The translations under genes were made by a program, and so were the position numbers. A stretch of 64,000 nt of DNA from Candidatus Babeliales bacterium (GTDB lineage Bacteria > Babelota > Babeliae > Babelales > JACPOV01). The stretch covers positions 128,001 to 192,000 of the forward strand of contig JBFWNW010000001.1 of the NCBI GenBank assembly GCA_050250855.1. Reading direction: 5' to 3'. Positions 13,643-31,345 of this stretch are shown here, one piece after another. Position 1 is the stretch's first letter. Each line of letters begins with the position of its first letter. The notes beneath the pieces are model-generated. The model saw only the letters and a list, made by a program, of their open reading frames with translations, ran no database searches and was not told where the DNA came from.

Positions 13643-13758
<116 letters not shown>

Positions 13759-13765
13759 TTAATAT

Positions 13766-13799
13766 AAGCCCTGAGAGAAATCTCGGGGCTTTTTTTTTT
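13766..13799 (+). terminator. rRNA operon terminator
   Basis: AAGCCCTGAGA-GAAA-TCTCGGGGCTT followed by a long T run. Confidence 0.88.
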
Positions 13800-13894: not shown

Positions 13895-13924
13895 TTGACT
13901 AAGCTGTATATAGCTTGGTTTAAT
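13895..13924 (+). promoter_or_regulatory. Putative promoter of the beta-helix operon
   Basis: TTGACT-18 nt-TTTAAT with TG extended -10; near-palindrome AAGCTGTATATAGCTT in the spacer. Confidence 0.45.
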
Positions 13925-13960: not shown

Positions 13961-16465
13961 ATGTTGAACTCTAAAAATTATTTTTTTTATATAACGATAT
14001 TTGTTATTAGTTTTTCTTTTGGCATCATTCGACCTACAGTAAAACGATCTTTTTCTGATTTTTCTGATGAACAATTAAAAACCATTATTATAAATTCATT
14101 TCAATTATTAGGAAAAAGTTCTTTTGAAGTTGAAGAAGAACTTTTCAAAGGTTATAAATCATTATCAAATGATTTTCGTCTAGTTAATCGTGATTCATTG
14201 CTTGAAATTGCTTATATGATGCAACGCTCAACCTGTGCAAAGCTAACTACTATTTTTGAGTTGTTGTGTGAAATACAAAATGGCTTAGCGCCGCAAGATA
14301 TAAATGGTATATATACTGCATTGGATCAAAGCAGTGAAATTATCTGTGAAAAATTTCAGGAAACCTGGACGGCACTTGAGGCTATGAGCACACCGACTGT
14401 GTATATACTTTTTGATAGCGGTTTTCAGGATACGTTTACTGCTTTAGTAGGCTTGACAGACGCAATGTGCACTAAGTTTGAGGAAACATGGACAATTCTT
14501 GCAGCAAATTGCGGATTTCCGATTGCCATTACAGGCCCAGCAACTATTGCTGCTTCAGGCAACTATTGTTTGGATCAAAATATTTTGGGCAGTATTATTA
14601 TTAGTGCAGACAATGTAAATCTTGATCTTAATCATAAACGTATTTCAAGTGGCACTCCTCATAATATTGAAGTAACTTCTCAAGGAAATATATATATATT
14701 TAATGGAATTCTTTCTGATGCAGCAAGTAGTGCTATCAGCATAACTACGTGTACTAATGTTACTATTGAAAACGTTGACTTTATTGATAATCCAGCGGGG
14801 ATTAGTGTTTTAACGTCTACGATTATTACTGTTAATAATTGTACGTTCCGCGGCAGTAGCGGTCGAGCAATGAGTTTTGATGATTCTATGCTTGGAAATA
14901 TTGCTAATTGTACCTGTGAGCTCAATACTGGTGCTACAGAAATTCTTGCAACCTTTAGCAGTCGTTGTATGCAATTTTCCAATATTGAAATTTGTAATAA
15001 TACTGGGGCGGCAGTATTTTTTCCGATACTAATTAATAATCTATCAGATTCAATATTTCAAGGCGTGCGGGTGAACGAAAATAGTGCGGCCACAGAACTT
15101 GGTGCTTTTGTTATTACAGGTACAACGCAGAATGTAAAATTTTTTGAATGCACTGTTTTTAGAAATAATGCCCCTACCCTTGCTGCTGCACTGCTAGGAG
15201 CTAATCCACAAGATATAACTTTTAACACGTTTAATATTGCTGGTAATAGTTTTTCTAATAATAGTATTCTTGTAGACGCAACAGCTTTGACAAATGGGGT
15301 ATTCAATCAGGTGCATGTTGATGATAATACGAGCTTAGCTGCACTGCGTGCTTTCCAATTGACGAACTGTAGTAATCTTGTATTTAATGGATGCAGTGCG
15401 CTTGATAACACGGCGACATCAACTCTTATTGGACTAGATTTTCAGAATTGTAATGATGGTGTAGTCAAGAATTCAAGCATTAATGATAATACAAGTTCAT
15501 CGTTATCAGTGCAGGGGATAAATATTTACAATTCTCATAATCTTACCTTTGATAGTTGCACTGCATTAGTTAATACGGCTCCAAACTGTCAAGGTATGTC
15601 TGTCGAAAATTCTACAGCATTAAAAACAGTCAACAGTCATTTTATGAACAATGTTGGTTCTGATGTAAATGGTGTGCATGCAATTTCTTCATGTACTGAT
15701 CTTATTTTTAATAATTGTACTTCATTAAATAATACGGCAACCAATGGCGTTTCGCGTGGTTTTTATATGCAGAATAGTCTAAAAGTTGTACTTGATGGAT
15801 GTCTTGCCAATGATAATCTTGGCTCAGCAACAGGACGCGGTATAGATTTCTTTGATACCCATACTTCGTGCATTATAAATAGTTTTGCAAAAATTAATCA
15901 GGGTACTAATGCAGATGGAGAAGGTATACGTTTAGAAAATTGCATTGATGTTGTATGTCAAAATAATAGTTGTCTTGGTAATACGGGAGCTATCCAAGCA
16001 AATGGTATTGCCGTAATAAGTGGTCAAGGGCATACACTACAAGGAAATATCTGTAATAATAATACGACGCGTGGGATTTATATTGAGAGTGCACCAAAAA
16101 ACACCATTGATGGTAATATTTGTAATAACCAAAATAATCGTTTTGGGATCGAGCTTGTTTCAAGTAATAGTAATAGCATAAAAGCAAATATTGCAAATAC
16201 TAATGTAACGGGTATTTCACTTGATAGTGCTAGTCTTGGTAATTGTGTGCTTAAAAATTTTACGTTATTAAATACTGATACGGGAATAAATAATCTAGGT
16301 TCAAGTAATTCATTTATACTTAATAACTCAGAACATAATGGGATTTCTGGGGTGAATAACTTTAATGGCGTACCAACGAGCATTATTGCTATATTTCAGG
16401 TTAGTGTATCAAGTTTTGTTTCGGGAACCACGAATCCATTTGTAAATGTTGATATAAGACCATAA
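13961..16465 (+). CDS. Secreted Cys-rich right-handed beta-helix protein 1
   Basis: ATG 13961 after AAAAAGGAG; hydrophobic N-terminus; two CxKFxETWTxL motifs; GNYCL..VNLDLN cap; many N/I/C-rich PbH-like repeats. Confidence 0.88.
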   Translation: MLNSKNYFFYITIFVISFSFGIIRPTVKRSFSDFSDEQLKTIIINSFQLLGKSSFEVEEELFKGYKSLSNDFRLVNRDSLLEIAYMMQRSTCAKLTTIFELLCEIQNGLAPQDINGIYTALDQSSEIICEKFQETWTALEAMSTPTVYILFDSGFQDTFTALVGLTDAMCTKFEETWTILAANCGFPIAITGPATIAASGNYCLDQNILGSIIISADNVNLDLNHKRISSGTPHNIEVTSQGNIYIFNGILSDAASSAISITTCTNVTIENVDFIDNPAGISVLTSTIITVNNCTFRGSSGRAMSFDDSMLGNIANCTCELNTGATEILATFSSRCMQFSNIEICNNTGAAVFFPILINNLSDSIFQGVRVNENSAATELGAFVITGTTQNVKFFECTVFRNNAPTLAAALLGANPQDITFNTFNIAGNSFSNNSILVDATALTNGVFNQVHVDDNTSLAALRAFQLTNCSNLVFNGCSALDNTATSTLIGLDFQNCNDGVVKNSSINDNTSSSLSVQGINIYNSHNLTFDSCTALVNTAPNCQGMSVENSTALKTVNSHFMNNVGSDVNGVHAISSCTDLIFNNCTSLNNTATNGVSRGFYMQNSLKVVLDGCLANDNLGSATGRGIDFFDTHTSCIINSFAKINQGTNADGEGIRLENCIDVVCQNNSCLGNTGAIQANGIAVISGQGHTLQGNICNNNTTRGIYIESAPKNTIDGNICNNQNNRFGIELVSSNSNSIKANIANTNVTGISLDSASLGNCVLKNFTLLNTDTGINNLGSSNSFILNNSEHNGISGVNNFNGVPTSIIAIFQVSVSSFVSGTTNPFVNVDIRP

Positions 16466-16497
16466 GAGAATTAAGAATTAAAAAAAAGGAAAGCATA

Positions 16498-19116
16498 ATG
16501 ATGAAGGCAGTAGCAGCAAGCAAAAAAATAACACTCTGGCTGTTAGCTTTTTTGTTTATACATGTAGTCGTTCATGCAGATGATTTTTCTAGAGAAGATG
16601 CACTTTGTGAGCAGCAAGATATTACCTGGCTTGCAGAAGAAGTAAAGGATATTATAGTTTTAGTATGCCAAGAGTATGAAGATGCAGCTATGCTTGCTCA
16701 GCTCCACCCAGAACTGATAAAAGTGTATTACGATCTTAAAGCTGGTAAAGAGCCTTGTCAAGAGGAGTTAGTAAAAGCAGCACATCTTCTTATGGTGTTT
16801 CGCTCAACGGGACTTTTGCCGCTTATCTTAGAAAAAGTATGCGCTATTTTAGCCTCAGTTGAAGGTGATTTTAATCCAGTTTTTACTCTTTTGGCAGAAC
16901 AGCAAGAAATTCTTTGTGATAAGTTTCAACAAACTTGGACTATTTTTGATAATTTTTTAACACCGACTTCCATAGTATCCACTCAAAAAGATTTTGAAAA
17001 TACTTTTACAGCACTTGATCAGATGGAAGAAATTTTATGCCAAAAATTCTTAGAAACGTGGACTATTCTGCCTACGACACAACCTACTCCTATCAACGCT
17101 CCCATGGTAATTAGTCAATCTGGGTCTTATTGCTTGAATCAAGATATTGTGGGGACAATCACTATTGCAACAAGTTGCGTGCAGCTTGATTTGAACAACA
17201 AACAAATTGATGCTAATGGAGGCAATGGTATTTCAGTAGCAAGCCAAAGCACTATTATTATTGAAAATGGTTATATTGCCAATGCTGCATCAGCGGTAGC
17301 TATAGATTCTTCTAGTAATATAAAAATTTCCGCTCTAGATTTTATAGGAAATAATTTAGGCGTTTCTGCAGCTACAACTACCTTTATACAGATAGATTAT
17401 TGTACCTTTAGAGCGGGTACAAACGGCATAAGGTTTATGACTTGTACCGGGGGTAGCGTTTCTGACTGTAAATTTACCCAACATAGCTCTACTGTAATAT
17501 CTCTTAGCTTTTCTTCTGCTTGTTTTTTATTTAAAAATATAGCGATATGCAATAATACCATTACCTCTGGTAATTTAATAGCGGCAACCAATTCAGTAAG
17601 AAATATTTTTTTTGATCGAATTCTTATTAATAATAATAGTAGTAGTGGTACCCTAATTCCATTTTTTATACCACTCAATAATGTCCATGTATATAATAGT
17701 TCAATTTGTTGTAATCAAGCAGCATCTAATTTTAAAGGGATAAATGTATTTGGTTGTACGGTGCTTGATAATATTGAAATATCTAATAACCGATCAACTG
17801 GTGGTAGTGTTACGGGTATTGCTCTTGAGCCAGGAACAGGTGGTTTTGAGGATGTATTAAATGCTCAGAATATTACTATTAACAATAATAAAGCAAGCAC
17901 TACCTTTGAAGGAATAGCAAACCTATCACCGGATGTTTTTCAAGAATGTACTATTGAAAATTGTTCTATTAATAATAATAGCAGCAATGGCGCTTCTTCG
18001 GGTATACATTTTATGAGTTCCAAAAATATAACCTTACGAGAAATTTTTATTGCAAATAATTCTGCCGCGGTAAATGCAAGTAATACGTTTGATGGTGTTC
18101 GACTCAATGGGTGTAGTCAAGCAACGCTAGGTCAATGCACGGTATTTGGTAATACTTCACCAACATGCCGCGGGCTTTATATTTTAGGTACGAGTATCAA
18201 TATGCAAGTACTGGATTCTAATTTTAGTGATCAAGTAGGCGGTTCTGATTGCTTTGGGGTGCGCATTGAGGGTAATCCAAGCAATATGTATTTTGATCAT
18301 TGCACTTCGTTACGTAATACATCTACTCAAACAAATGCTAGAGGGATTGGTTTTTCAGTGTCTCTTATACTTCCAAGTTCCATAAATGTAACATTTGAAT
18401 CGTGTATAGCAAATGGAAACAATGCTTTAGCTGGTGGTGTTGCAGCAAGAGGTTATGGTTTTCATATAGTGCAATCAAGAAATTTTGAGATTCTTAATTG
18501 CATAGCAAAACATAACAGTTCGAGTGGTACTGGTTCAGGAATTTTCCTTGAAGGGCTGAACGGCAGGGATTTTATAGTTAAAAATTGTATTCTTAATGGC
18601 AATACCGGGTTGGTTTTTGGAGCTGGCATATCATCAGTTTTTTCCTACGGCATTATGCAATATACTATTTGTAATGATAATTTTGATAACGGCATACAGC
18701 TTGCTGCTGATTATGTGACTCTTGAAGGAAATATTTGCAATAATCATTTGGATGCAGCTAATGGACAGGGAATAGCTGTGAGCGGCGGTTCTGGTGGTGG
18801 TCTTAATGTTGTCAAAGGCAATATATGTAATTATAATCGGGAGGGTATTAGAATCCCAGGTACTTCAACCTTTAGTGCGAAAAACTTGACACAAAATAAT
18901 AGTTCAGTTGGTATAGTTGATCCTAATGGAGTTGGTGGGAATAATAGTTATACCAATAATACATCACAAAGAAATGGGGCAACGGGGACAAGTAATTATA
19001 GCGGAACTTTGCCGACAAGAGCAGCGCTTTTAAATACGTTTAATGTTGGAGCGGGGACCTTTACGGGGGCTGCTGGGCCACTGAATATATTTTCTAATTT
19101 GAATGTATTGCCATAA
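16498..19116 (+). CDS. Secreted Cys-rich beta-helix protein 2
   Basis: Signal peptide (VVHA), two CxKFxxTWTI motifs, GSYCL..VQLDLN cap, PbH-like repeats. Confidence 0.88.
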   Translation: MMKAVAASKKITLWLLAFLFIHVVVHADDFSREDALCEQQDITWLAEEVKDIIVLVCQEYEDAAMLAQLHPELIKVYYDLKAGKEPCQEELVKAAHLLMVFRSTGLLPLILEKVCAILASVEGDFNPVFTLLAEQQEILCDKFQQTWTIFDNFLTPTSIVSTQKDFENTFTALDQMEEILCQKFLETWTILPTTQPTPINAPMVISQSGSYCLNQDIVGTITIATSCVQLDLNNKQIDANGGNGISVASQSTIIIENGYIANAASAVAIDSSSNIKISALDFIGNNLGVSAATTTFIQIDYCTFRAGTNGIRFMTCTGGSVSDCKFTQHSSTVISLSFSSACFLFKNIAICNNTITSGNLIAATNSVRNIFFDRILINNNSSSGTLIPFFIPLNNVHVYNSSICCNQAASNFKGINVFGCTVLDNIEISNNRSTGGSVTGIALEPGTGGFEDVLNAQNITINNNKASTTFEGIANLSPDVFQECTIENCSINNNSSNGASSGIHFMSSKNITLREIFIANNSAAVNASNTFDGVRLNGCSQATLGQCTVFGNTSPTCRGLYILGTSINMQVLDSNFSDQVGGSDCFGVRIEGNPSNMYFDHCTSLRNTSTQTNARGIGFSVSLILPSSINVTFESCIANGNNALAGGVAARGYGFHIVQSRNFEILNCIAKHNSSSGTGSGIFLEGLNGRDFIVKNCILNGNTGLVFGAGISSVFSYGIMQYTICNDNFDNGIQLAADYVTLEGNICNNHLDAANGQGIAVSGGSGGGLNVVKGNICNYNREGIRIPGTSTFSAKNLTQNNSSVGIVDPNGVGGNNSYTNNTSQRNGATGTSNYSGTLPTRAALLNTFNVGAGTFTGAAGPLNIFSNLNVLP

Positions 19117-19161
19117 TGACGGTATAGAGAAAAAATAAACATTGAAAAAGGAGCTTTTTAT

Positions 19162-21696
19162 ATGAATTTTTCATTAATAAAAAGGAAAATAATTCTACCG
19201 TTTTTTATGGTTTTGTGTGTGAATGCTTTTGCGCATAATTCCTATGAATGCCGTACAGATACAGCTTTAAAAAAGCTTATTCTGACAACCTGTAATGAGA
19301 TTCAAAAAGAAGGATTGCTGGATCAATTAGACCCTTACATTGTAACCTGTTACTATCTTCTTTGCAGTGATAAAGAAGTAGAATATGATTATTTGCTGGA
19401 TGTTGCTGCCATGATTCACCGCTCATGCGGAGGTTCTGGTTGCCCATCTATTTTAAAGCAAATTAATGATAAATTGTGTGAGATTTTAGATTTTGATTTT
19501 AACAATGTTTTTACAGCTATTGCTGGCAATACAGAAGTTGCTTGTGAAAAATTTGAGCAAACTTGGACTATTATAGCGGGCATTTCTGAAGTAATGTCTG
19601 TAACATTTGATTTTACAGATTTTTCTTCTGTATTTACAAAAATCGATGCCATAGAAGAATCATTGTGTGATAAGTTTGGGCAAACATGGACAATTTTGGC
19701 AGCAGGATGTACGCCACCAACGCCCATTAGTGCACCAACAACTATCTCAAGTCCTGGTACGTATTGCCTTACGGCTGATATTAGCGGATTAATTACTATT
19801 GCTGCTGATCGCGTAGTACTTGATTTAAATAATCATGAAATTTCTGGTGCTTCACCTAGCAATATTATTATTGCAAATCATAGTGATATTACGATTAAGA
19901 ATGGCCGTATTTCTGGAGCTGGCACGAACTGTATTGATACTGCTACGTGTGAAAACATAAAAATTTTGAATATTGAATTTTCTGATAGTCCGACTGCTCT
20001 TGCTGTTTTAACAACTACCTGCATTCAAATTGATAAGTGTACTTTCAGAGGCTTTTCAAGTGAAGCCCTTTGTTTTAATAATGTTAATAGCTCAGAGGTT
20101 TCAAACTGCAGCTTTTTTAGCAATAGCGGCACCCGATTAATATTTGTTGATACCTGCAACTGTATAAATTTTGTAAATCTTGAAATGTGCAATAATTTTT
20201 CATCAAATGAATTGATTGGTGTTGTGGGAAGCTCCTCATGTGGCTTGAATTTTTTCAATTGTTCTTTTAATGGCAATAGAACTACGACAGCAAGTCTTAC
20301 TCCTCCTAATCTAGCGGGGTTTAGTTTAACAACCTGCCGGGCTGTTATTTATAATAAATGTTGTGTTAATAGCAATATAGCGGAGCATATTTTTATAGGG
20401 CTTGTGTTTAATGATTGTAAAGATGTAATTATAAAAACGGTTGATATTAATAGTAATAGTTTACTACAAGGAGATCCAGATACTTCTCTCTCTGCTATTG
20501 CCGTTAATGATATTATTGCGCCATCTGATAGTAACAGTTTTCTTTTAGAGGATATCCAGATAAATAATAATACTACACCTCAAGATGCGAGATTAATCTT
20601 TTTTAGTGGTGTAAATAATATAAATATAAGAACAGCTACGCTTCAAAATAATATATTTAATGGAAGCTCTTCTCAAGCTATTAATTTAGGAAACGTTGAT
20701 AATTATGTTTTTGATTCTATTGCAATTTTTAATAATCGTTGTGTTGGTGGGATATTTACAGGAATTTCGCTTTCAAGTGGCAATAGGGGTATTGTAAAAA
20801 ATTGTAGTGTATCGGAAAACCTTGGAGGTTCAGATGTAGAAGGATTAGGTGCTACATCATCCCAAGATGTTCAAGTGGTCAACTGCTGTTTTAACGATAA
20901 TATTGGCAGTGATGCTTACGGTGCTCGCATCTATTCATCTAGCAACGATGTTATTCATATTCACTGTTGTTCATTGCGCAATACTGCTACTGCAGGTACT
21001 GCACGAGGATTTTTTTCAGAAGATTCACAAGAAGTTATTTTTGATTCATGTATAGCAAATGATAACGTTGGTACCGATTCTGGCCGAGGTTTTGATATTC
21101 GCTTAACGCAGACGTCATCTGTTATTAAATGTACTGCAAAACGCAATCAGGGTACTTGTGGTGAGGGTATTCATGTAGAAAATAATTGCTTTGATATCGT
21201 AGTAAAAGAATGCATTGCAATTGGTAATACTGGGACCGTAGAAGGTCAAGGTATTTCAATTCTTACTTCAACTATGAATGTAGTGCAAGGAAATACCTGC
21301 AATGATAATACAACCAATGGTATTTTATTGAATAGTACCATCAAGAATGTTGTATTAAATAATACCTGCAACAATAATGGCGGCATTGGTCTTTCATTAA
21401 TTTCAAGTACTAGTAATTTAATCAAAGCGAATTTTGCAAGTTATAATAGTGATGGCATCGTGCTTTCAAGTAGTAGTAATGCAAATTGTGTGTTTAAAAA
21501 TATTGTACAAGCAAATAATGCAACCGGTATTAGTAATACAGGTTTGGATAATGCCTTCTTTAAAAATAAAGCGCAAGATAATACAACCAATTTCAGTGGT
21601 GTAGCTGCTGCAGCAATTGGTGTTTTTTCTTTTGGTTCAGGGACGTATACCTTTGGACCGCCAAATAACTATAGTAATATTTCGGTGGTACCATAA
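19162..21696 (+). CDS. Secreted Cys-rich beta-helix protein 3
   Basis: Signal peptide (NAFA), two CxKFxQTWTI motifs, PGTYCL..VVLDLN cap, PbH-like repeats. Confidence 0.88.
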   Translation: MNFSLIKRKIILPFFMVLCVNAFAHNSYECRTDTALKKLILTTCNEIQKEGLLDQLDPYIVTCYYLLCSDKEVEYDYLLDVAAMIHRSCGGSGCPSILKQINDKLCEILDFDFNNVFTAIAGNTEVACEKFEQTWTIIAGISEVMSVTFDFTDFSSVFTKIDAIEESLCDKFGQTWTILAAGCTPPTPISAPTTISSPGTYCLTADISGLITIAADRVVLDLNNHEISGASPSNIIIANHSDITIKNGRISGAGTNCIDTATCENIKILNIEFSDSPTALAVLTTTCIQIDKCTFRGFSSEALCFNNVNSSEVSNCSFFSNSGTRLIFVDTCNCINFVNLEMCNNFSSNELIGVVGSSSCGLNFFNCSFNGNRTTTASLTPPNLAGFSLTTCRAVIYNKCCVNSNIAEHIFIGLVFNDCKDVIIKTVDINSNSLLQGDPDTSLSAIAVNDIIAPSDSNSFLLEDIQINNNTTPQDARLIFFSGVNNINIRTATLQNNIFNGSSSQAINLGNVDNYVFDSIAIFNNRCVGGIFTGISLSSGNRGIVKNCSVSENLGGSDVEGLGATSSQDVQVVNCCFNDNIGSDAYGARIYSSSNDVIHIHCCSLRNTATAGTARGFFSEDSQEVIFDSCIANDNVGTDSGRGFDIRLTQTSSVIKCTAKRNQGTCGEGIHVENNCFDIVVKECIAIGNTGTVEGQGISILTSTMNVVQGNTCNDNTTNGILLNSTIKNVVLNNTCNNNGGIGLSLISSTSNLIKANFASYNSDGIVLSSSSNANCVFKNIVQANNATGISNTGLDNAFFKNKAQDNTTNFSGVAAAAIGVFSFGSGTYTFGPPNNYSNISVVP

Positions 21697-21720
21697 AAAG
21701 TAGAAAAAAAGGATGAATCA

Positions 21721-24090
21721 ATGAAGCAACGTCAAGGTAACTTGTTTTTTGTAGTGCTAAGCCTATTGAGTTTTAGCAGTCTAAAAGCAGAATTTAATAA
21801 CGAAGATTTTAGTGTTGAATTTGTGGAGCTTGCAGAATATCGCAGTGGTTGTGATAAATTAACGCCAATTTTAAATAAGGCATGCCAAATAGAAGCAACT
21901 GTTACGGTATTTGATTTTAGTGGCGTTTATACAGCAATTGAAGCAAATACAGAGCTTTTTTGTGAAAAGTTTGAGCAAACCTGGACTATTCTCGCTGCTA
22001 TTGAGCAAAATCAAGAAATTGTAGATGAAAATCAGTTTGCTCAAACTTTTACTGCTATTGTTCAAGTGACTGAAATTCTTTGTGGTAAGTTTCAGCAAAC
22101 TTGGACTATTCTTGGATGCTCTGCTCCAATACCAGTGACACAGCCAACAACTATTGCAAACTCAGGAAACTATATTGTAACGACAACGATTAATGGTGCT
22201 ATAATAATTGCAGCTGATCAGGTTTCTCTTGATTTAAACCAACATAAAATTACTGGCGCCTCTCCTGATAATATTTCAATCTCTGGCCAGAGTGATATAA
22301 CTATTTTCAATGGCACTATTCAAAATGCTACTACCAATGGTATTGATATTGCCAATTGTACAAATGTAAAAATTATTGATATTGATTTTGTATCAAATGT
22401 AACTGCTATTAATGTGCTTACTACAACCTGTTTGAAAATAGAAAACTGTACTTTTAGCGCACAAACAGGTGGTGGTATTTTTATTGATAATACCAATAGC
22501 ATCGCCATTAATTCATGCAAATTTAATATCAATTCATGTAGTACTATGCTTAGCTTGGAAGATTCGTTATGCATTAATTGTAATGACGTTGCGATATGTT
22601 TTAATGGGACGCTTTCTTCCACAATACCATTTCTTCCTATTGTTGCTCGAAGAATTAACAATGCACTTTTTAGTAATTGTAAGATTACCAGTAATAACTT
22701 TTCGTCAAATCTAGCACAAGTTTGGCGAGGTTTTACCTTTGAATCAAGCAGTAATATTGCCCTACAAAAATGCTCAATAAGTACTAATCCTGCAACCGCT
22801 GGCGGCACTAATAATTTTATTGGCATTGCTTTTGAACCTACTTGTCAAAACGTAGCCCTTGATGGGATTGATATCGTTGCCAATACCGTATCGCTTTCAT
22901 TTACTGCTATACGAGCAGACTCTTTATCAAATGCGCGACTCTATAATATTTTTATTGATTCAAATAGTGTTACTAATGGCAGTAATACCGGTTTATACTT
23001 CAATAACTGCCAAGATATTACCGGTGAGGGTTTGGTAGTAAGTTCTAATGTTGCAACAAATCAAATTACTGGCTATGAAGCTTTTGCGAGTAATAAATGT
23101 ATGCTGCGTAATGCTGAGTTTAATAATAACAGAACAACTGGCGTATTTGATTCACGAGGGATTTATTTTTCAGGATGTAATAATATTATTTTGCAAACTG
23201 TGCAAGCTCAAGATAATGCTACTACAGGGAGCACAGAAGGTATTACATTTGATAGTTGTAATCAAGTAGTGCTGAATAGTTCCATTACTAATAATAACGT
23301 TGGCAATAATAGTTCCATTGGGGTGAGAATAGTTGATGGGTGCTCCGATATTTTACTTGATAATTGTGTTTCATCTTCAAATTGCGGATTGTTAAGTAGT
23401 TCCACAACACGAGGATTTTTAGCAGAAAATAGCACTAAAATTATATTTAATTATTGTGTAGCCATGGATAATGGAGGAGCTGGGATAGTGAGAGGATTTG
23501 ATGTACGCAATACCACAACCTCATGTATTTTAAATTGTACTGCAGTAGGAGAGCTAAGTACTGCTATTGCTATTGAGCTTGATTCATGCGCTGAAATAAT
23601 CGTTCAAAATTATAGTGCCAGTTTCCTTGGATTAGGTATTAATGTAAATAATACAGCGAATGCTATCATTAAAGATAGTAATTTTATTACGGGTCCTTCT
23701 GGTAATGTAGGTATGAATCTTGTAGATTCAAATCGGATTATTATAGAGGGTAATAGCGTAAAAGGCCACTCTAGAGGCTTAGAATTTACACGCAGTAGTA
23801 CGAACACTATACAAGGCAATATATTTGATAATAATAGTTTTTCGGGAGTAAGGGTTAACACAGTAGATAGCGTTGAAAACTTTTTCTTTAAAAATATTGC
23901 TAATTTCAATACATTATCCGTAGGTTTTATTGATGCCGCTTCTAATTTAAATACTTATTTTTTAAATAAAGCACAGCAGAATGGTTCGGATTTTTCTTCA
24001 ATTGCTCCTGTTGCAATCTTTGATATGTCTACCGGTGCATTTGTCACAACAACAACCTCTCCCTTTGATAATCTTTCAATAGTTCCGTAG
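21721..24090 (+). CDS. Secreted Cys-rich beta-helix protein 4
   Basis: Signal peptide (SLKA), two CxKFxQTWTIL motifs, SGNYIV..VSLDLN cap, PbH-like repeats. Confidence 0.88.
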   Translation: MKQRQGNLFFVVLSLLSFSSLKAEFNNEDFSVEFVELAEYRSGCDKLTPILNKACQIEATVTVFDFSGVYTAIEANTELFCEKFEQTWTILAAIEQNQEIVDENQFAQTFTAIVQVTEILCGKFQQTWTILGCSAPIPVTQPTTIANSGNYIVTTTINGAIIIAADQVSLDLNQHKITGASPDNISISGQSDITIFNGTIQNATTNGIDIANCTNVKIIDIDFVSNVTAINVLTTTCLKIENCTFSAQTGGGIFIDNTNSIAINSCKFNINSCSTMLSLEDSLCINCNDVAICFNGTLSSTIPFLPIVARRINNALFSNCKITSNNFSSNLAQVWRGFTFESSSNIALQKCSISTNPATAGGTNNFIGIAFEPTCQNVALDGIDIVANTVSLSFTAIRADSLSNARLYNIFIDSNSVTNGSNTGLYFNNCQDITGEGLVVSSNVATNQITGYEAFASNKCMLRNAEFNNNRTTGVFDSRGIYFSGCNNIILQTVQAQDNATTGSTEGITFDSCNQVVLNSSITNNNVGNNSSIGVRIVDGCSDILLDNCVSSSNCGLLSSSTTRGFLAENSTKIIFNYCVAMDNGGAGIVRGFDVRNTTTSCILNCTAVGELSTAIAIELDSCAEIIVQNYSASFLGLGINVNNTANAIIKDSNFITGPSGNVGMNLVDSNRIIIEGNSVKGHSRGLEFTRSSTNTIQGNIFDNNSFSGVRVNTVDSVENFFFKNIANFNTLSVGFIDAASNLNTYFLNKAQQNGSDFSSIAPVAIFDMSTGAFVTTTTSPFDNLSIVP

Positions 24091-24124
24091 TTTTTTTAAG
24101 GAAGTAAAAAAAGGAAGACATACT

Positions 24125-27100
24125 ATGCAAGAAAAATGGTTAATAAAACTAAGTTTATTGATACTTTTTGTTCCCGTGATATCTTTTCATGCTGAGCAAC
24201 CTAAAAATCATATGATTTCTTTATATGATTTAGAAGTTGAAGCTGTTTTATCGCCATTGATGGCAGAATATGCTGAATTGCTTCCAATAACATATGCATA
24301 TTATAAAAATAGTGCGCAAGGGCAAACTTCTTTTTCTTCAGAAGAACTTTCTAATGTAATCTCAGAACTCTCCGATTTTATAGAAACCTATTCAACAAGA
24401 TCAGGTAGTTTGCATGGTGATCGTGGTTCACGCCCTGATGCGCCGCCATTAATAGCAAATGATGCGGTTGTTGGTAAGAGTTGTTGCGATTTAACGCAAG
24501 TTATAGCACTCCTTGGCGCATTAAAAAAACTACTTATTAAGATAGAGTTTGAGTTGTGTGAAAAGTTTGAGTTTACTTGGTCGATACTCGACAAAATAGA
24601 TATTGATATTAACGGTATATTTACCGCAATAGATGCAATACAATGTCCAACGGTTGACTTGTCTGGCATATTTACGGCCCTTGAATTTGGATTCTATGAT
24701 ACGCAGACAATATTGTGTGAAAAGTTTGAATTCACTTGGTCAGCGCTTGAGAAAATAGATATTGATGTTAACGGCATTTATACGGTGCTTGAAAATCTTA
24801 CTATAACGTTGAGTGTAGGTGAATTAACAATCAATGCAACAATAGATCTCTCTGGTGTGTTTACGGCACTTGAGTTTGGCTTCTATGATACACAAACAAT
24901 CTTGTGTGAAAAGTTTGAGTTTACTTGGTCGGCACTTGAGAAGATAGATATTGATGTTAACGGTATATTTACCGCATTGAACGATATTACGATTAATGCG
25001 ACCGTTGATGTAGATCTCTCTGGTGTGTTTACGGCACTTGAATTTGGCTTCTATGATACGCAAACAATACTGTGTGAAAAGTTTGAGTTTACTTGGTCGG
25101 CACTGGAGAAAATAGATATTGATATTAACGGGATATTTACCGCATTGAACGATATTACGATTAATGCAACCGTTGATGTAGATCTCTCTGGTGTGTTTAC
25201 GGCACTTGAGTTTGGCTTCTATGATACGCAAACAATACTGTGTGAAAAGTTTGAGTTTACTTGGTCGGCACTTGAGAAAATAGATATTGATGTTAATGGT
25301 ATATTTACCGCATTGAATGATATTACGATCAATGCGACCGTTGATGTAGATCTCTCTGGTGTATTTACTGCCCTAGAGTTCGGCTTCTATGATACGCAAA
25401 CAATACTGTGTGAAAAGTTTGAGTTTACTTGGTCGGCACTTGAGAAAATAGATATTGATGTTAATGGTATATTTACCGCATTGAATGATATTACGATCAA
25501 TGCGACCGTTGATGTAGATCTCTCTGGTGTGTTTACGGCACTTGAGTTTGGTTTCTATGATACACAAACAATACTGTGCGAAAAGTTTGAGTTTACTTGG
25601 TCGATACTCGACAAAATAGATATTGATGTTAATGGTATATTTACCGCAATAGACGCAATACAATGCCCAACGGTTGACTTGTCTGGCATATTTACCGCAC
25701 TTGAATTTGGCTTTTATGATACGCAAACAATTATCTGTGAAAAATTTGAATTCACTTGGTCAGCGCTTGAGAAAATAGATATTGATATTAACGGGATATT
25801 TACTGCATTGAACGATATTACGATTAATGCGAGCGTTGATGTAGATCTCTCTGGTGTATTTACTGCCCTAGAGTTCGGTTTCTATGATACACAAACAATC
25901 TTGTGTGAAAAGTTTGAGTTTACTTGGTCGGCACTTGAGAAAATAGATATTGATATTAACGGTATATTTACCGCAATAGATGCAATACAATGTCCAACGG
26001 TTGACTTGTCTGGCATATTTACGGCACTTGAGTTTGGTTTCTATGATACACAAACAATCTTGTGTGAAAAGTTTGAGTTTACTTGGTCGGCACTTGAGAA
26101 GATAGATATTGATATTAACGGTATATTTACCGCATTGAACGATATTACGATTAATGCGACCGTTGATGTAGATCTCTCTGGTGTGTTTACGGCCCTAGAG
26201 TTCGGCTTCTATGATACGCAAACAATACTGTGTGAAAAGTTTGAGTTTACTTGGTCGGCACTTGAGAAAATAGATATTGATGTTAATGGTATATTTACCG
26301 CATTGAATGATATTACGATCAATGCGACCGTTGATGTAGATCTCTCTGGTGTATTTACGGCCCTAGAGTTCGGCTTCTATGATACGCAAACAATACTGTG
26401 TGAAAAGTTTGAGTTTACTTGGTCGGCACTTGAGAAGATAGATATTGATATTAATGGTATATTTACCGCAATAGACGCAATACAATGCCCAACGGTTGAC
26501 TTGTCTGGCATATTTACCGCACTTGAATTTGGCTTTTATGATACGCAAACAATTATCTGTGAAAAATTTGAACAAACGTGGACTATTCTTAATGCACTAT
26601 GTAACGGTATTGAAGGGTTGCAAGCATCAATTGATGATCTATGTTGTGAAATCTTTGATGACTTTGAGCAGACGATGACTCTTCTCGTAGAAATTAAAGA
26701 CGATATCTTTGAGACGCAAACAATTCTATGTAGTAAGTTTGAGCAAACGTGGACTATTTTAGACGCAGTGTGCAATAAATTTGAGCAAACATGGACAATA
26801 CTTGCGTGCAATGTTTCAGTTCCAATTTCTGCAGCAACAACAATTAGTAATCCAGGAACGTATTGTTTGATTAATGATATTGTGGGTACTATTACCATTG
26901 CTGCTGATAGTGTAACGCTTGATTTAAATGGAAAATCGATATCTGGAGGAGCAAATGGTGTTTACTCAAGTAATCATACTGATATAACAATAAAAAATGG
27001 TCTTATTAAAAATGCTACTGAAAATGGCATTAAGTTTACCAATGTAACTGATATCTCGATATTTTCTATTAAGCTTAGAAATAATACAAAAGGCATAGCA

Positions 27101-28693
27101 CTAAATTCTGTTAAAGGTGGCTTTATTACAGAGAGTATTATGCTAGAAAATGCTACAGGCCTTGAACTGGTGCAAACATCAAAAGTTTTTGTAAAAAATT
27201 GCATAGCACAAGAAAATACGATTGTTGGTTTTTCATTAGTAGATTCAGATAATAATACGTTTAAAGAATGTACTGCAATGTGCAATGGTCTAAGTGGTAA
27301 TGATAGTGCCTATGGATTTATTTCAGATAACGGGCGTTCGAATATTTTTGAGCAGTGCAATGCGCAGGGAACAATCACAACGCAAACTACATTAGATTTC
27401 GTTGCTGCTGGTTTTGCCCTGACCGGTTCAGAAATGTGTACTAAAATTATCAGTTGTGAAAGTTTTGATAATACCACCCCTACGACCGGATTTGCAATTC
27501 CATATGGTATTTTATTAACCTATACATTCACAGTCACAGATCTGATAGTAACAGATTCAGTAACAGTAATTCCTGCAGCTACTGTTGCATCAGTTAACTG
27601 GTCACCAAATGGTAAGTTCCTAGCTATAGGAAGTTTTGGTTCCCCACAAACTCGTATCTATGCGTTTGATGGCATTAATTTGATGCAAGTTGCTACTGCG
27701 GTGCATGGAATTCTTATTCGCTCCGTTAACTGGTCACCGGATAGTAAATACCTAGCCATTGGAGGGGGTTTTAGTGGTGGTGTTCAAGTTCGCGTCTATG
27801 CTTTTAGCGGTGTGAGTTTGACGCAAGTTGCTTCTGCAGCACCAGCACTAGTAGGTTCTATTGCATCAGTTAACTGGTCACCGGATGGTAAATACCTAGC
27901 CGTTGGAGGGACTATGAGTGACATTTTCGTCTATGCCTTTGATGGGGTAAGTTTGACGCAAGTTGCTTCTGAAGCACCTGGAGCTATTGTAAACTCAGTT
28001 AACTGGTCACCTGATGGTAAATACCTAGCCATTGGAAGGAGTAGTGGTGAGATTCTCGTCTATGCCTTTGATGGGGTAAATTTGACGCAAGTTGCTACTG
28101 AAACACTTGCAGGTAGTGTAAACTCAGTTAACTGGTCACCGAATTGTAAGTTCTTAGCTACTGGACTTGATAGTGGTCCTGAGCTTCGCGTCTATGCTTT
28201 TAGCGGTGTAAGTTTGACGCAAGTTGCTACAGGACCTGTAGGAACTCCCGTTTTATCAGTTGATTGGTCACCCGATGGTAAATTCCTAATTACTGGAGGC
28301 TCTGCAGTTCGTGTCTATGCCTTTAATGGATTGGTCCTGACGCAAGTTGCTACTGCAGCAGTACCTATGGGAATGACTGTTTTCTCAGTTGATTGGTCAC
28401 CAGACGGTAGTTATATTGGCTTAGGAAAAGATGGTTCTCCAGAGGTTATTGTTTATAATGCTTTTGCATGGGAGCCGACGAGAAATATTATCAAAAATAA
28501 CCTTCTCTATTGCAATGTTGGCAATGAGTGTCCCGGTGGTGTTGGTATTTCTGGTTCGAGCCTTAAAAATTTAATTATTGGCAATACTGCCTATGAAAAT
28601 ACAGCAAACTATGAATTTGTGACGAATGTATATAAAGATGGTATTAATAATAGCCCAAGTACCTTAGAAAATGTTTCCGTTCCGCCATATTAG
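24125..28693 (+). CDS. Secreted protein 5: tandem-repeat stalk plus beta-helix with inserted WD40 beta-propeller
   Basis: Signal peptide (SFHA); 12 tandem 53-63 aa repeats; PGTYCL..VTLDLNG cap; seven V[ND]WSP[DN] blades. Confidence 0.9.
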   Translation: MQEKWLIKLSLLILFVPVISFHAEQPKNHMISLYDLEVEAVLSPLMAEYAELLPITYAYYKNSAQGQTSFSSEELSNVISELSDFIETYSTRSGSLHGDRGSRPDAPPLIANDAVVGKSCCDLTQVIALLGALKKLLIKIEFELCEKFEFTWSILDKIDIDINGIFTAIDAIQCPTVDLSGIFTALEFGFYDTQTILCEKFEFTWSALEKIDIDVNGIYTVLENLTITLSVGELTINATIDLSGVFTALEFGFYDTQTILCEKFEFTWSALEKIDIDVNGIFTALNDITINATVDVDLSGVFTALEFGFYDTQTILCEKFEFTWSALEKIDIDINGIFTALNDITINATVDVDLSGVFTALEFGFYDTQTILCEKFEFTWSALEKIDIDVNGIFTALNDITINATVDVDLSGVFTALEFGFYDTQTILCEKFEFTWSALEKIDIDVNGIFTALNDITINATVDVDLSGVFTALEFGFYDTQTILCEKFEFTWSILDKIDIDVNGIFTAIDAIQCPTVDLSGIFTALEFGFYDTQTIICEKFEFTWSALEKIDIDINGIFTALNDITINASVDVDLSGVFTALEFGFYDTQTILCEKFEFTWSALEKIDIDINGIFTAIDAIQCPTVDLSGIFTALEFGFYDTQTILCEKFEFTWSALEKIDIDINGIFTALNDITINATVDVDLSGVFTALEFGFYDTQTILCEKFEFTWSALEKIDIDVNGIFTALNDITINATVDVDLSGVFTALEFGFYDTQTILCEKFEFTWSALEKIDIDINGIFTAIDAIQCPTVDLSGIFTALEFGFYDTQTIICEKFEQTWTILNALCNGIEGLQASIDDLCCEIFDDFEQTMTLLVEIKDDIFETQTILCSKFEQTWTILDAVCNKFEQTWTILACNVSVPISAATTISNPGTYCLINDIVGTITIAADSVTLDLNGKSISGGANGVYSSNHTDITIKNGLIKNATENGIKFTNVTDISIFSIKLRNNTKGIALNSVKGGFITESIMLENATGLELVQTSKVFVKNCIAQENTIVGFSLVDSDNNTFKECTAMCNGLSGNDSAYGFISDNGRSNIFEQCNAQGTITTQTTLDFVAAGFALTGSEMCTKIISCESFDNTTPTTGFAIPYGILLTYTFTVTDLIVTDSVTVIPAATVASVNWSPNGKFLAIGSFGSPQTRIYAFDGINLMQVATAVHGILIRSVNWSPDSKYLAIGGGFSGGVQVRVYAFSGVSLTQVASAAPALVGSIASVNWSPDGKYLAVGGTMSDIFVYAFDGVSLTQVASEAPGAIVNSVNWSPDGKYLAIGRSSGEILVYAFDGVNLTQVATETLAGSVNSVNWSPNCKFLATGLDSGPELRVYAFSGVSLTQVATGPVGTPVLSVDWSPDGKFLITGGSAVRVYAFNGLVLTQVATAAVPMGMTVFSVDWSPDGSYIGLGKDGSPEVIVYNAFAWEPTRNIIKNNLLYCNVGNECPGGVGISGSSLKNLIIGNTAYENTANYEFVTNVYKDGINNSPSTLENVSVPPY
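24554..26554 (+). repeat. Coding tandem repeat array, 12 units (159/168/189 bp)
   Basis: Cys codons of CEKF at 24557, 24716, 24905, 25073, 25241, 25409, 25577, 25736, 25904, 26063, 26231, 26399 and 26558. Confidence 0.95.
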
Positions 28694-29970: not shown

Positions 29971-30003
29971 TTTTTGTATACTAGCAGATTTTTCAGGCGG
30001 ATG

Positions 30004-30852
30004 TTAATCATCCGCCATTTTTTTTGCTTGGATAATTGCATAAGGACAAAGATAGTTAATAGAACCATTTTCATTTTCTGGATATAGTTTTAGATATTCA
30101 TCAATTACGGTATCTAAAAATTCATTATGTAAACTTTCATTAAGTATTTCAATGCCGATCGGCAAAGCTTGCAAGTGCTTTTTGAACTGAGCACAAGAAG
30201 AGAAAATATTAAATTTTTTTATACATTGATAAGTAATCTCTGAGCAACCTAACTTGGCAAGTTCTTTTTTGCATTGTTTAGGGTTTATCAAATGCAGCGG
30301 AAAAGCATACTGTTTAAAATGGTCTGACCATCTTGATGATAGCAATGCGGCTTTATAGGCAGTTACTATAGGTTGTTCATCATCAATAGTGGCGATAAAA
30401 AGAAGAGAGCCTCCTGGTTTTAATGCTCTTACTATCTGCGCTAAAGCTGTTTTTATATCTTGTATCCAGTGAAGGCAAAAAAATGATGTTACATAATCAA
30501 ATTCATCTTGAAAGGCAAGATCAGTCGCATCATGCTGCATAAATGATACGTTGGGAATATGAGCATAATGTTCTTGAGCAAACTTAATCATACTCGATGA
30601 AATATCAATACCAATGACAGATCCATACGGTACTTTTTCTGCAAGTAAGGTAGAAATTTTTCCAGCTCCACAGCCAATATCAAGAATTTTTTTATCAGGA
30701 GCAAATTCATATTCGGCTACTATCTTTTGAGCAATGCCATTTTGGCGTTGTGCGTCTCTGTTATAGCGTTGCGCGTGCCACGGTAGTGAATTTTCAGCAC
30801 TGCATGCTGATGATAAAAATAAAGAGCATATAAGATAGAATAATAATACCAT
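30004..30852 (-). CDS. Class I SAM-dependent methyltransferase (Tam-like) with predicted signal peptide
   Basis: ILDIGCGAG, GIDISSSMI, FDYVTSFFCLHW, LKPGG. Confidence 0.9.
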   Translation of the reverse strand: MVLLFYLICSLFLSSACSAENSLPWHAQRYNRDAQRQNGIAQKIVAEYEFAPDKKILDIGCGAGKISTLLAEKVPYGSVIGIDISSSMIKFAQEHYAHIPNVSFMQHDATDLAFQDEFDYVTSFFCLHWIQDIKTALAQIVRALKPGGSLLFIATIDDEQPIVTAYKAALLSSRWSDHFKQYAFPLHLINPKQCKKELAKLGCSEITYQCIKKFNIFSSCAQFKKHLQALPIGIEILNESLHNEFLDTVIDEYLKLYPENENGSINYLCPYAIIQAKKMADD

Positions 30853-31012: not shown

Positions 31013-31345
31013 ATGAATATTTATGATAATGCACGAGATCTATTTTTAGGATTAGTATGTGCTTTATTAATACCATTAACCGTTATCTATGGCTTGGAAT
31101 TTTTAGGGATATATCAAGATTATATGTATTTTTATTATTCCTTAGCAGCAGGGATTTTATTCATAATACTAGGTGCTTTTTTAAAATTAGGATTTATAGG
31201 TAGTGGATTCATTTTAGGCGGTGTACTTACTATTGTTTTATCAATGGGGCCCAGAAGTGCTATGTCAGGAGTAAAAATTGCTTCACTTTTAGGTGTTTTT
31301 CTTTTGATTATTGGTCTTACTGTTTTTTTAAAAAGAAAAAGTTAA
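31013..31345 (+). CDS. Small 4-TM membrane protein, paralogue A
   Basis: Hydrophobic; shares LAAGILFIILGAFLKLGFIG and FLKRKS with the next gene. Confidence 0.8.
   Translation: MNIYDNARDLFLGLVCALLIPLTVIYGLEFLGIYQDYMYFYYSLAAGILFIILGAFLKLGFIGSGFILGGVLTIVLSMGPRSAMSGVKIASLLGVFLLIIGLTVFLKRKS

Follow-up and report, generated by a model that had tools for sequence, protein, structure and literature searches.

Tandem paralogs of putative exported stalk-and-beta-helix proteins in a Babelales genome: a possible repertoire for host-cell contact

Judged from their sequences, five adjacent genes (G1-G5) in a genome of the order Babelales (Babelota; assembly GCA_050250855.1) are tandem paralogs of a fast-evolving, lineage-specific family of about 26 genes. 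With a probability of about one half, we read this family as a diversifying repertoire, specific to its lineage, of exported adhesin-like proteins with a stalk and a beta-helix that may serve contact with the host cell. The window, i.e., the whole stretch of DNA that was analysed, comprises 64,000 nucleotides of contig JBFWNW010000001.1 (positions 128,001 to 192,000), and all coordinates below are positions within it. Dependentiae are widespread parasites of protists, and to our knowledge, how they recognise and enter their hosts is essentially unknown. An exported, quickly diversifying family with an undescribed helical module would offer a tangible candidate for what meets the host and could mark host-range differences between lineages, and the stalk module itself presents a target for structure determination.

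Gene array and paralog family

The five ORFs are co-oriented on the + strand and span 13961-28693 (Table 1). The intergenic gaps are 32, 45, 24, and 34 nt, and an AAGGA-type ribosome-binding site, consisting of a run of A followed by GGA(G), lies ahead of each start codon, so that the orientation, the gaps of 24-45 nt, and the binding sites named in the original prediction were all found again. An alternative TTG start of G1 lies upstream at 13895. The array itself contains no terminator-like structures beyond two weak stems of 5-6 pairs, each within coding sequence, and the next strong terminator-like site on the array strand is at 29996-30016. Given the tight spacing, a common transcript would be probable, and co-transcription of G1-G5 is plausible on sequence grounds. 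The sequencing runs listed as containing this DNA are three DNA runs from one study, with no RNA run among them. The neighbours of the array are housekeeping genes (rRNA operon, DAO-type oxidoreductase, methyltransferase, and Ku); no assembly, anchor, or usher gene was found among them, nor any nosF/nosY ABC components, NosFY-type genes, or alginate genes.

Table 1. Positions of the array, its flanking signals, and the modules of the encoded proteins (window coordinates)
Feature	Position	Strand	Details
5S rRNA	13644-13758		Upstream of array
Strong terminator-like hairpin after 5S rRNA	13766..13791	+	11-bp stem, 6 GC pairs, T-run; upstream array boundary
G1, 834 aa	13961..16465	+	Signal peptide, N-terminal helical region, two stalk units, cap, beta-helix, end motif FVNVDIRP; PF13229 83.9 bits, PF05048 45.4 bits
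G1 stalk module (aa 89-184)	14225..14512	+	RS motif plus two units; hydrophobic periodicity peak 3.75 residues
G2, 872 aa	16498..19116	+	G1-like layout; end motif FSNLNVLP
G2 stalk module (aa 102-195)	16801..17082	+	Alignment, motif, periodicity
G3, 844 aa	19162..21696	+	G1-like layout; 41 Cys (4.9%); end motif YSNISVVP
G3 stalk module (aa 87-183)	19420..19710	+	Alignment, motif, periodicity
Weak terminator-like stem in G3	20050-20067
G4, 789 aa	21721..24090	+	G1-like layout, N-terminal region shorter; end motif FDNLSIVP
G4 stalk module (aa 41-135)	21841..22125	+	Motif, AF2, periodicity
G4 right-handed parallel beta-helix (aa 137-715)	22129..23865	+	AF2 pLDDT mostly >90
Weak terminator-like stem in G4	22904-22918
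G5, 1522 aa	24125..28693	+	Signal peptide, N-terminal region with GSRPDAP motif, 15 stalk motifs, cap, beta-helix, inserted propeller; end motif LENVSVPPY
G5 expanded stalk (aa 145-897)	24557..26815	+	15 C.KF..TW[ST] motifs
G5 168-nt (56-aa) tandem array	24843-26470	+	9.8 copies in this assembly, 87% matches
G5 cap and first beta-helix segment (aa 899-1129)	26819..27511	+	pLDDT 85-97, model residues 20-250
G5 seven-bladed WD40-type propeller (aa 1139-1445)	27539..28459	+	Inserted in beta-helix; AF2 model residues 260-566
G5 terminal beta-helix rungs (aa 1455-1496) and tail	28487..28690	+	AF2 strands at model residues 576-617

All five proteins share one modular layout from signal peptide (Sec-type, N-termini judged by eye) to end motif, in agreement with the original prediction. 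Within an alignment of G1-G4, the invariant positions include R89-S90, the two C.KF..TWT motifs, P187/P193/I196/G200/Y202 and V219-L221-D222-L223-N224 in the cap, and a final N...P. The cap consensus common to the family proteins of the array reads P.PI..G.YCL...V.LDLN, with GNYIV in G4 in place of GxYCL. A conserved R-[SA] motif, which in G5 is the Arg-Ser at aa 92-93 and in relatives reads [KR]-[AS]-P-R-P-D-A-P, closes a short helical N-terminal region; the motif of the predicted "pro-region ending in Arg-Ser" therefore stands, but we do not adopt the label, which implies cleavage. The supposed C-terminal motif is likewise conserved family-wide but not truly C-terminal: because it sits internally in multi-cassette relatives, we take it for a domain boundary and reject the reading as a terminal sorting signal or tag.

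The genome holds 46 matches to G3. Family membership was assigned to 21 proteins by phmmer and motif and to five more by the cap HMM or the end motif; they are arranged in four arrays, one of which is G1-G5, with about 21 further members in the other three. The 21 clearest members sum to 18,627 aa, or 4.6% of the 1.22-Mb genome. Pairwise identity among G1-G4 is 30-36% and varies by region, with 40-48% in the stalk and cap, 16-31% with indels in the centre, and 32-42% in the C-terminal third. Conservation is thus concentrated at the ends of a cassette, with hypervariable rungs in the middle or, in G5, an inserted WD40 propeller there. Giant relatives chain three to four such cassettes in one protein.

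Outside this genome, the stalk module has a patchy distribution, occurring in 20 of 201 genomes of the phylum, which belong to 13 of 120 genera; some of these genomes have over 20 matches. It is rare in general, as a search of 1.84 billion proteins with G3 aa 91-213 (overlapping the G3 stalk module) returned 72 cluster representatives at E<=1e-3. The module was combined with Beta_helix in 17 of the 28 matches that were scanned, several of them also with propellers. When 5.8 billion proteins were searched with G3, the top match apart from its paralog G4 covered only 18% of the query. The five-gene array was not found in the examined regions of a genome of the same genus (G170), which have only single or paired members, 35-39% identical and at other loci; in G002, too, no array was found, and its diverged members lie elsewhere, alone or in pairs. 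The operon conservation that the original prediction proposed to look for was accordingly not seen in these two genomes. Pattern searches of genome contigs with family alignments gave pattern matches, none of which was confirmed. The claim that the family is undescribed agrees with a full-text literature search, which returned no paper on it from the text open to searching; the parts of Dependentiae genome papers that were consulted deal with pili, ankyrin-repeat proteins, and "surface antigens of unknown function" and do not mention it.

Beta-helix bodies and the inserted propeller

A Cys- and Asn-rich beta-helix had been proposed for each protein, and composition and profile matches, together with AlphaFold2 (AF2) models of G4 and of the C-terminal part of G5, bear this out. 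Asn makes up 10.8-12.8% of G1-G4 against a median of 4.4%, and Cys 3.3-4.9% of G1-G4 and 2.3% of G5 against a genome median of 1.23% (comparison set of 924 other ORFs of the genome, 95th percentile 3.1%). Both PF13229 (Beta_helix, 36.4-83.9 bits, cut-off 25.9) and PF05048 (NosD, 28.1-45.4 bits, cut-off 23.6) match all of G1-G5. The model of G4 (mean pLDDT 80.7) has regular rungs with few long loops and a single long low-confidence loop at aa 301-331; in both G4 and G5, the last ~25-70 residues after the final modelled rung are of low confidence. The model of G5 aa 880-1522 (mean pLDDT 83.5) passes from a beta-helix, to which the PF13229 match at aa 944-1083 belongs, through a seven-bladed propeller into more rungs, and its last 24 residues (pLDDT 26-34) form a tail that bears the family end motif. 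The propeller matches PF00400 at 77.2 bits (cut-off 27) in addition to many other propeller families, and Foldseek aligned it to the WD40 structure 5yzv with an E-value of 1.6e-17 and a target-normalised TM-score of 0.88.

Compared with known structures by VIA-align, the G4 beta-helix reaches Z 21-28 to tailspikes, Vag8, AlgE4/E6, NosD, and PfbA. The best match is the receptor-binding domain of a cyanophage tailspike (7eea, Z 28.0), followed by Sf6, HK620, CBA120, and phi29 gp12, and a tail protein of phage Andhra tops the Foldseek list. AlgE4/E6 stand at Z 26.4-26.7, and the other top neighbours include alginate epimerases/lyases, PL6 lyases, Klebsiella and Acinetobacter phage depolymerases, and RbmB. 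Enzymes (AlgE4/E6, AlgG, PL6 lyases, phage depolymerases) are as numerous among the neighbours as adhesins (Vag8, PfbA, pertactin), and since their Z values lie within a few units of each other, the fold is unable to separate binding from catalysis.

These neighbours lend some weight to an alternative that we nonetheless consider unlikely, namely that the family consists of secreted carbohydrate-active enzymes (depolymerases, lyases, or epimerases) that would act on glycans of the host or prey, such as the glycocalyx, the cyst wall, or vacuole contents, with the paralogs covering different substrates. The combination of PF05048 (NosD/CASH type) and PF13229 is typical of carbohydrate-binding and -processing beta-helices, and there are weak sequence matches to AlgG, AlgE4, and NosD (E about 0.01). 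However, no lyase or hydrolase family matched G1-G4 at E<=0.01, and the central rungs, the usual site of a cleft, are the least conserved part. No invariant or near-invariant charged residue was found across 34 family members, a weak argument as the alignment is repetitive and rich in indels; in the equally repetitive and indel-rich alignment of G1-G4, only D222, R599, E659, and K765 are invariant charged residues outside the stalk. The regular rungs with few long loops also speak against a catalytic role, and the propeller insertion in G5 suggests binding over catalysis. While the mannuronan C5-epimerases AlgE4/AlgE6/AlgG, PL6 alginate lyases, and NosD resemble the family in their PF05048 and PF13229 signature and in fold (Z 21-27), neither a family-level match nor conserved catalytic residues were detected in the family, and as far as PDB sequence searches go, they lack the stalk module.

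In the preferred reading, the proteins form a variable, ligand-binding (adhesin-like) repertoire for meeting the host cell; their binding face would be provided by the variable beta-helix or the propeller, and the helical module would serve as a spacer, possibly also as an oligomerisation or disulfide-stapling element. The five products would then be alternatives or additive variants and not obligate partners.

Stalk module, cysteines, and export

The stalk unit, [FY]TA[LI]..C.KF..TWTIL, occurs in two copies in G1-G4, in 15 in G5, and in up to 40 in one paralog. The conserved residues of the unit (Cys, Phe, Trp, and Leu) follow one another at intervals of 3-4-3, like the core positions of a coiled coil, and the units are predicted to form amphipathic alpha-helices: the hydrophobic periodicity is 3.3-3.75 residues in G1-G4 and exactly 3.6 in the G176 and G198 relatives (beta-helix control, 7.6 and 2.5), and AF2 models the G4 stalk, at low confidence, as a pair of long helices (aa 67-96 and 104-130). 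An additional period-2 component is present in the 56-aa unit of G5. A beta-strand fibre (triple beta-helix or spiral), considered for the stalk on account of the T/I/V/F-rich segments of G5, is not favoured because the periodicity in G1-G4 and the relatives is alpha-helical. Pfam similarities of the stalk are to coiled-coil-type families only, none secure enough to assign it to a family, and the structural libraries that were searched gave no match to it (best E 0.26 in a sequence search against the PDB; no usable feature match for two queries to the ESM Atlas, with structure rows at TM <=0.30 for the second query). A 1192-aa variant (P0003) exists beside the 1522-aa G5; the contigs of DNA runs X1-X3 are all interrupted at the repeats, at 24589 and 26543, and therefore neither confirm nor refute the copy number of the tandem array.

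Profile searches of whole proteins and C-termini agree with the original prediction that the proteins carry no autotransporter barrel, YadA anchor, lipobox, or LPXTG. Neither a barrel nor Chlam_PMP repeats were found at E<=0.01 in whole proteins (for G5, among the matches listed), at E<=1, the C-terminal pieces searched (200 residues for G1-G4, 77 for G5) matched neither of these nor any other C-terminal anchor family, and no YadA-type membrane anchor matched whole proteins or C-termini of G1-G5. Curated NCBIfam/Pfam models of sorting tags (sortase/LPXTG, PEP-CTERM-like, T9SS CTD) gave no match at the C-termini, no transmembrane-like stretch follows the end motif, and no lipobox was recognised in G1-G5. 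With no barrel, lipobox, or known sorting tag, there is room for a periplasmic location. The envelope genes of the genome include two for Omp85, two for secretins, and one for a VKOR homologue; DsbA and DsbB were not found in the genome. In the host-contact reading, Sec export would come first, and a further step would bring the proteins to the cell surface or into the medium; as noted, two secretin genes are present.

The original prediction had taken G1-G5 for subunits of a fibre or coat of infectious particles, a homo- or hetero-oligomer joined by disulfides, with variable beta-helix heads and G5 as an extended tip. The tight co-oriented genes without a strong internal terminator, the shared amphipathic helical module with its conserved Cys at a coiled-coil core-like position, and the VKOR homologue would all suit such an assembly, as would the giant relatives with their three to four cassettes per chain. 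The total number of cysteines is odd in G2 (29), G4 (27), G5 (35), and mature G3 (39), so that at least one Cys per chain is left without an intrachain partner, and low-confidence monomer models of the stalk and the tail are to be expected if folding needs assembly. A three-copy model of G4 aa 41-300 scored 0.12 against a mark of 0.42, which is evidence in neither direction. On the other hand, most cysteines of the body lie at periodic rung positions, as is typical for internal ladders, so that "Cys-rich" alone does not imply cross-linking and loses weight as evidence for it. DsbA and DsbB, as well as any dedicated assembly, anchor, or usher gene among the housekeeping neighbours, are missing from what was found. 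Five distinct subunits of one system are, moreover, hard to reconcile with paralogs of a family of about 26 members in four arrays of unlike composition and with an array that was not found in G170 or G002, and we hold the fibre or coat to be improbable. Slightly less probable still is a specific form of it in which the stalk unit would be a disulfide-stapled coiled coil of a new kind through which the paralogs of one array co-assemble into host-attachment fibres on the infectious cell of Dependentiae, with mixed heads (beta-helices plus the G5 propeller) and with array composition setting host range.

Relation to known systems

Chlamydial polymorphic membrane proteins (Pmps), which are type Va autotransporters, are a large, fast-diverging, tandem multigene family of Sec-exported beta-helix proteins in bacteria with an obligate intracellular life in a host and a small genome. 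The family described here resembles them as a set of tandem, diverging, putatively Sec-exported beta-helix proteins that takes up a sizeable part of its genome (the 4.6% given above), but it differs in the absence of a match to a C-terminal beta-barrel or Chlam_PMP and in having a short end motif and, at the N-terminus, a stalk of helical repeats that bear Cys. Apart from the common fold, there is no sign of homology with Pmps. Bordetella Vag8 (7akv) and pertactin (2iou) and pneumococcal PfbA (3zpp, 4mr0) share the beta-helix fold (Z 21-27.5); they are surface proteins that bind host molecules and are anchored by an autotransporter barrel or LPXTG, whereas no such anchor was found in G1-G5. 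Since other intracellular bacteria are well known to have variable families of beta-helix surface proteins, we do not regard the G1-G5 family as a new kind of system.

Phage tailspikes and appendages (cyanophage Pam1 7eea, Sf6 2vbk, phi29 gp12 3gq7, Andhra 8egr) likewise have a long beta-helix after an N-terminal stalk (Z 24-28) and head the structural comparisons, but a derivation of G1-G5 from domesticated tailspike or tail-fibre genes, or a role in tailocin-like particles, is highly improbable in view of the Sec signal peptides, the housekeeping and rRNA neighbours without phage context, the lack of any PHROG match in G1-G4 at E<=1e-3 (those of G5 run through the propeller and repeats only), the absence of a match to a C-terminal chaperone domain family, and a scan of viral contigs with the G1-G4 alignment that gave pattern matches, none confirmed, and no relative.

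A last likeness concerns the C-terminal domain of the baculovirus polyhedron envelope protein (PF04513, Baculo_PEP_C), which matched the G5 stalk at 38.0 bits, borderline to its 38-bit cut-off, and did not match G1-G4. PF04513 is counted among the families with frequent overlaps driven by coiled coils, according to the part of the source consulted (PMC3695513). As none of the matching stretches in G5 is significant alone, and given such overlaps, we read the match as reflecting a common coiled-coil character and not homology; the relative P0035 matches the same family at 65.4 bits.

The tandem array and its shared layout

Downstream of the rRNA operon of the window and its terminator-like hairpin, after an AT-rich spacer of 202 nt, lie five tandem paralogs, G1–G5. 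The ORFs bore out the original prediction of co-oriented genes with short gaps (24–45 nt; 32, 45, 24, and 34 nt from G1 to G5) and A-rich ribosome-binding sites, with a poly-A/GGA(G) site upstream of every start. Within the array, a terminator scan found only two weak terminator-like stems, both in coding sequence; the next strong plus-strand site lies at 29996–30016, 3′ of a DAO-type oxidoreductase gene. From the sequence, co-transcription of G1–G5 is plausible. Promoter-like hexamers were uninformative, because their count (85) was no higher than in shuffles (73.3 ± 9.4).

Features of the window (w) and family arrays on contigs C1, C2 and C4 of the same genome
Feature	Location	Strand	Details
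16S rRNA	w:8470–10013
tRNAs (two)			in rRNA operon
23S rRNA	w:10515–13533
5S rRNA	w:13644–13758
Strong terminator-like hairpin	w:13766–13791		3′ of 5S rRNA
G1	w:13961–16465	+	834 aa
G2	w:16498–19116	+	872 aa
G3	w:19162–21696	+	844 aa
G4	w:21721–24090	+	789 aa
G5	w:24125–28693	+	1522 aa
Family array (L030, L031)	C1:3–29315		11 genes; contig start, first gene cut by contig end
Family array (G1–G5)	in window
Family array	C1:337203–348018
Family array (L029 and beyond)	C4:157739–171947
Family fragment	C2		contig end

G2–G4 are 30–36% identical to G1, and the G1–G4 alignment confirmed every predicted motif: R89-S90, the cap (P187/P193/I196/G200/Y202 and V219-L-D-L-N224), a terminal N....P, and two stalk motifs C.KF..TWT, each after F/Y-T-A/K/L-L/I, are invariant. 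These four proteins have conserved ends and a hypervariable middle, with 40–48% identity in stalk and cap, 32–42% in the C-terminal third, and 16–31% with many indels in the central rungs. Beta_helix (PF13229) and NosD (PF05048) exceeded curated cut-offs in all five proteins. Judged by eye, the N-termini resemble standard type I (Sec-type) signal peptides, e.g., ...SLLSFSSLKA/EF in G4. As predicted, neither an autotransporter barrel nor a YadA anchor was matched by the full-length proteins or by their C-terminal regions, nor was a curated sorting tag, and no known anchor or enzyme-family signature was found in the family. Cysteine makes up 3.3–4.9% of G1–G4 and 2.3% of G5 (genome median 1.23%, 95th percentile 3.1%, 924 other ORFs), and asparagine 10.8–12.8% of G1–G4 versus a median of 4.4%.

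Past the array, two adjoining tandem paralogs (31013–31345 and 31369–31710) encode hydrophobic proteins of ~110 aa that both begin M.(I/L)YDN(A/V)RDLFLG and have no Pfam match, followed by a Ku homologue (31730–32536; PF02735, 132.9 bits) in this 1.2-Mb genome. Long ORFs without a Pfam family at E ≤ 1e-5 lie at 33748–37101 (−, 1117 aa), 2758–4047 (+, 429 aa), and 4134–6338 (+, 734 aa).

A large, rare and patchily distributed family

G1–G5 belong to a much larger family, of which they form one array. The assembly (1,218,285 bases, 11 contigs, 95% complete) holds 46 matches to G3; phmmer with G1–G5 retrieved 26 ORFs, 21 with family features and 5 matching only the G5 propeller, and searches with an HMM of the cap region and with the end motif brought in five extra members. 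Together, the 21 clearest members comprise 18,627 aa, or 4.6% of the assembly. At the start of C1, four paralogs of ~870–935 aa and two longer ones all have a G5-type beta-helix–propeller cassette and end in ...ENVSVPPY. On C4, a protein of 2424 aa that carries 40 stalk motifs is followed by some six shorter beta-helix genes, the majority of which retain the end motif but have no stalk motif. The 1297-aa member at C1:344113–348018 (−) is broken by an N run that makes its C-terminal part unreadable.

Of the 1043 ORFs ≥150 aa long, 25 finish with the end motif ([FWLYI]-x-N-[ILV]-x-[ILVF], no more than 3 residues from the C-terminus); ~21 of these belong to the family, and ~4.5 would be expected by chance. 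Its predicted conservation held, its C-terminal character did not: in multi-cassette relatives from protein collections (e.g., P0052, P0058, P0075, P0077, P0079, P0061, P0026, P0002, P0017, and P0018) it is internal (…LQNISxxG…, …YFTNVDP…) and closes many cassettes; a Cys-containing helical linker, or fresh stalk units, comes after it and leads to the next cap. The motif therefore marks where a domain of a modular cassette ends, and its reading as a terminal sorting tag was rejected. Four metagenomic chains (P0052, P0058, P0075, and P0026; 3179–3719 aa) each carry three or four cap/beta-helix/propeller cassettes joined by such linkers.

Searched against 5.8 billion proteins, G3 gave 13 matches, the best of which besides its paralog G4 covered 18% of the query. 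An exhaustive HMMER search with its stalk and cap (aa 91–213) against 1.84 billion cluster representatives gave 72 matches at E ≤ 1e-3, including some own-genome paralogs and some matching the cap part only, and 33 at E ≤ 1e-10. A Pfam scan of 28 matches showed 17 with the module plus Beta_helix, several also with propellers, and 11 without Beta_helix at E ≤ 1e-4. The stalk profile matched 20 of 201 phylum genomes (this one included) in 13 of 120 genera, all of the same order, in a sample of genomes of roughly 1 Mb from one single order. The spread is patchy, and some genomes (G126, G146, G176, G194, and G198) have their own tandem arrays with >20 matches. Relatives share an N-terminal plan of a signal peptide and then a helical region that contains a sequence resembling L-L-x-C-Y-x-x-L; they carry a [KR]-[AS]-P-R-P-D-A-P motif, of which R-S in G1–G4 is a reduced form, and their repeats consist of F-x-x-T-[WF]-[TS]-x-L sub-units.

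The module recurs in relatives; the array was not found in G170, of the same genus, which has only partial matches to G4 (35–39% identical) and no family gene upstream of its DAO homologue. In the regions examined, members in G170 and in a further relative, G002, occur elsewhere, alone or two to three together. The original prediction of a five-gene fibre system is only partly supported; the observation of the genes and their layout is real and wider than described. A fibre built from G1–G5 as five subunits is possible but disfavoured, as the genes are paralogs, the genome holds other arrays of the same family, and this array is not conserved. We infer instead that the family may be a diversifying repertoire of exported, putative binding proteins for host contact, which parallels chlamydial Pmps in logic, not in ancestry. 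Intracellular bacteria are already known to have variable families of exported beta-helix proteins; new here is the undescribed helical stalk module. Full-text literature outside subscription journals yielded no description of the family; the accessible text of the TM6 comparative paper (PMC4776705) mentions WD40, other repeat domains, and pili, and neither it nor that of another Dependentiae genome paper mentions beta-helix families.

Beta-helix, stalk and cysteines

The AlphaFold2 model of G4 (34-row alignment, mean pLDDT 80.7, pTM 0.76) shows a regular right-handed beta-helix at aa 137–715 with pLDDT mostly >90, while the stalk helices (aa 67–96 and 104–130) have pLDDT 33–55 and the last ~70 residues are likewise low. 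Foldseek and VIA-align returned generic beta-helices only: cyanophage Pam1 tailspike (VIA-align Z 28.0), Bordetella Vag8 (27.5), AlgE6 (26.7), AlgE4 (26.4), phage Andhra tail (26.4), and PfbA (21), and further Sf6 tailspike, phi29 gp12, and NosD. Enzymes, tailspikes, and adhesins are interleaved among these neighbours, and the fold therefore does not decide function; an enzymatic role could be read from the fold, but no charged residue is conserved across the 34 sequences, a point whose weight is limited by alignment quality. Nothing beyond the beta-helix fold speaks for a phage origin.

In the proposed repertoire of binding proteins, the stalk module would act as a spacer and possibly as an oligomerisation element. 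It is best read as an amphipathic alpha-helix: hydrophobic periodicity is 3.3–3.75 residues in G1–G4 and exactly 3.6 in the G176 and G198 relatives, with control peaks for the beta-helix at 7.6 and 2.5. The C, F, W, and L of C-x-K-F-x-x-T-W-T-I-L are spaced 3-4-3, which would resemble coiled-coil core positions, and in Pfam the module resembles coiled-coil-type families only. A borderline PF04513 match (38.0 bits versus a 38-bit cut-off, no single stretch significant) fits this, as the accessible text of PMC3695513 lists that family as prone to coiled-coil overlaps. The module had no match among PDB sequences (best E 0.26) and no neighbour in the Atlas.

The cysteine-rich composition was correctly predicted. 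In the beta-helix body, however, cysteines recur every ~23–28 residues with small offsets, i.e., at fixed rung positions, and look like internal ladders, which weakens cysteine richness as a sign of intermolecular cross-links; the conserved stalk cysteines are candidates for such links. The genome encodes diderm envelope proteins (two Omp85, two secretins) and a VKOR homologue, while DsbA and DsbB were not found in the 95% complete assembly; putative envelope disulfide formation is therefore possible.

Repeat array and propeller of G5

The fifth protein is long, as predicted, but the prediction had missed its 15 stalk motifs, tandem array, and WD40-type propeller. The 168-nt unit at 24843–26470 has 9.8 copies in this assembly, a number not independently secured because short-read contigs from three DNA runs all end at the array edges (24589 and 26543) and a 1192-aa, otherwise identical variant of G5 exists (P0003). 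The propeller was detected by profile match, and the AlphaFold2 model of aa 880–1522 (11-row alignment, mean pLDDT 83.5) runs from cap and beta-helix through a seven-bladed propeller to further beta-helix rungs and a 24-residue low-confidence tail. The propeller matched solved WD40 domains, among them 5yzv (E 1.6e-17, target-normalised TM-score 0.88). Two pairs of ~456–489-aa ORFs elsewhere in the genome (C1:472441–475245 and C2:103575–106807) match G5 only (E 2e-21 to 4e-27), presumably through the propeller, and appear to be free-standing relatives of this inserted domain.
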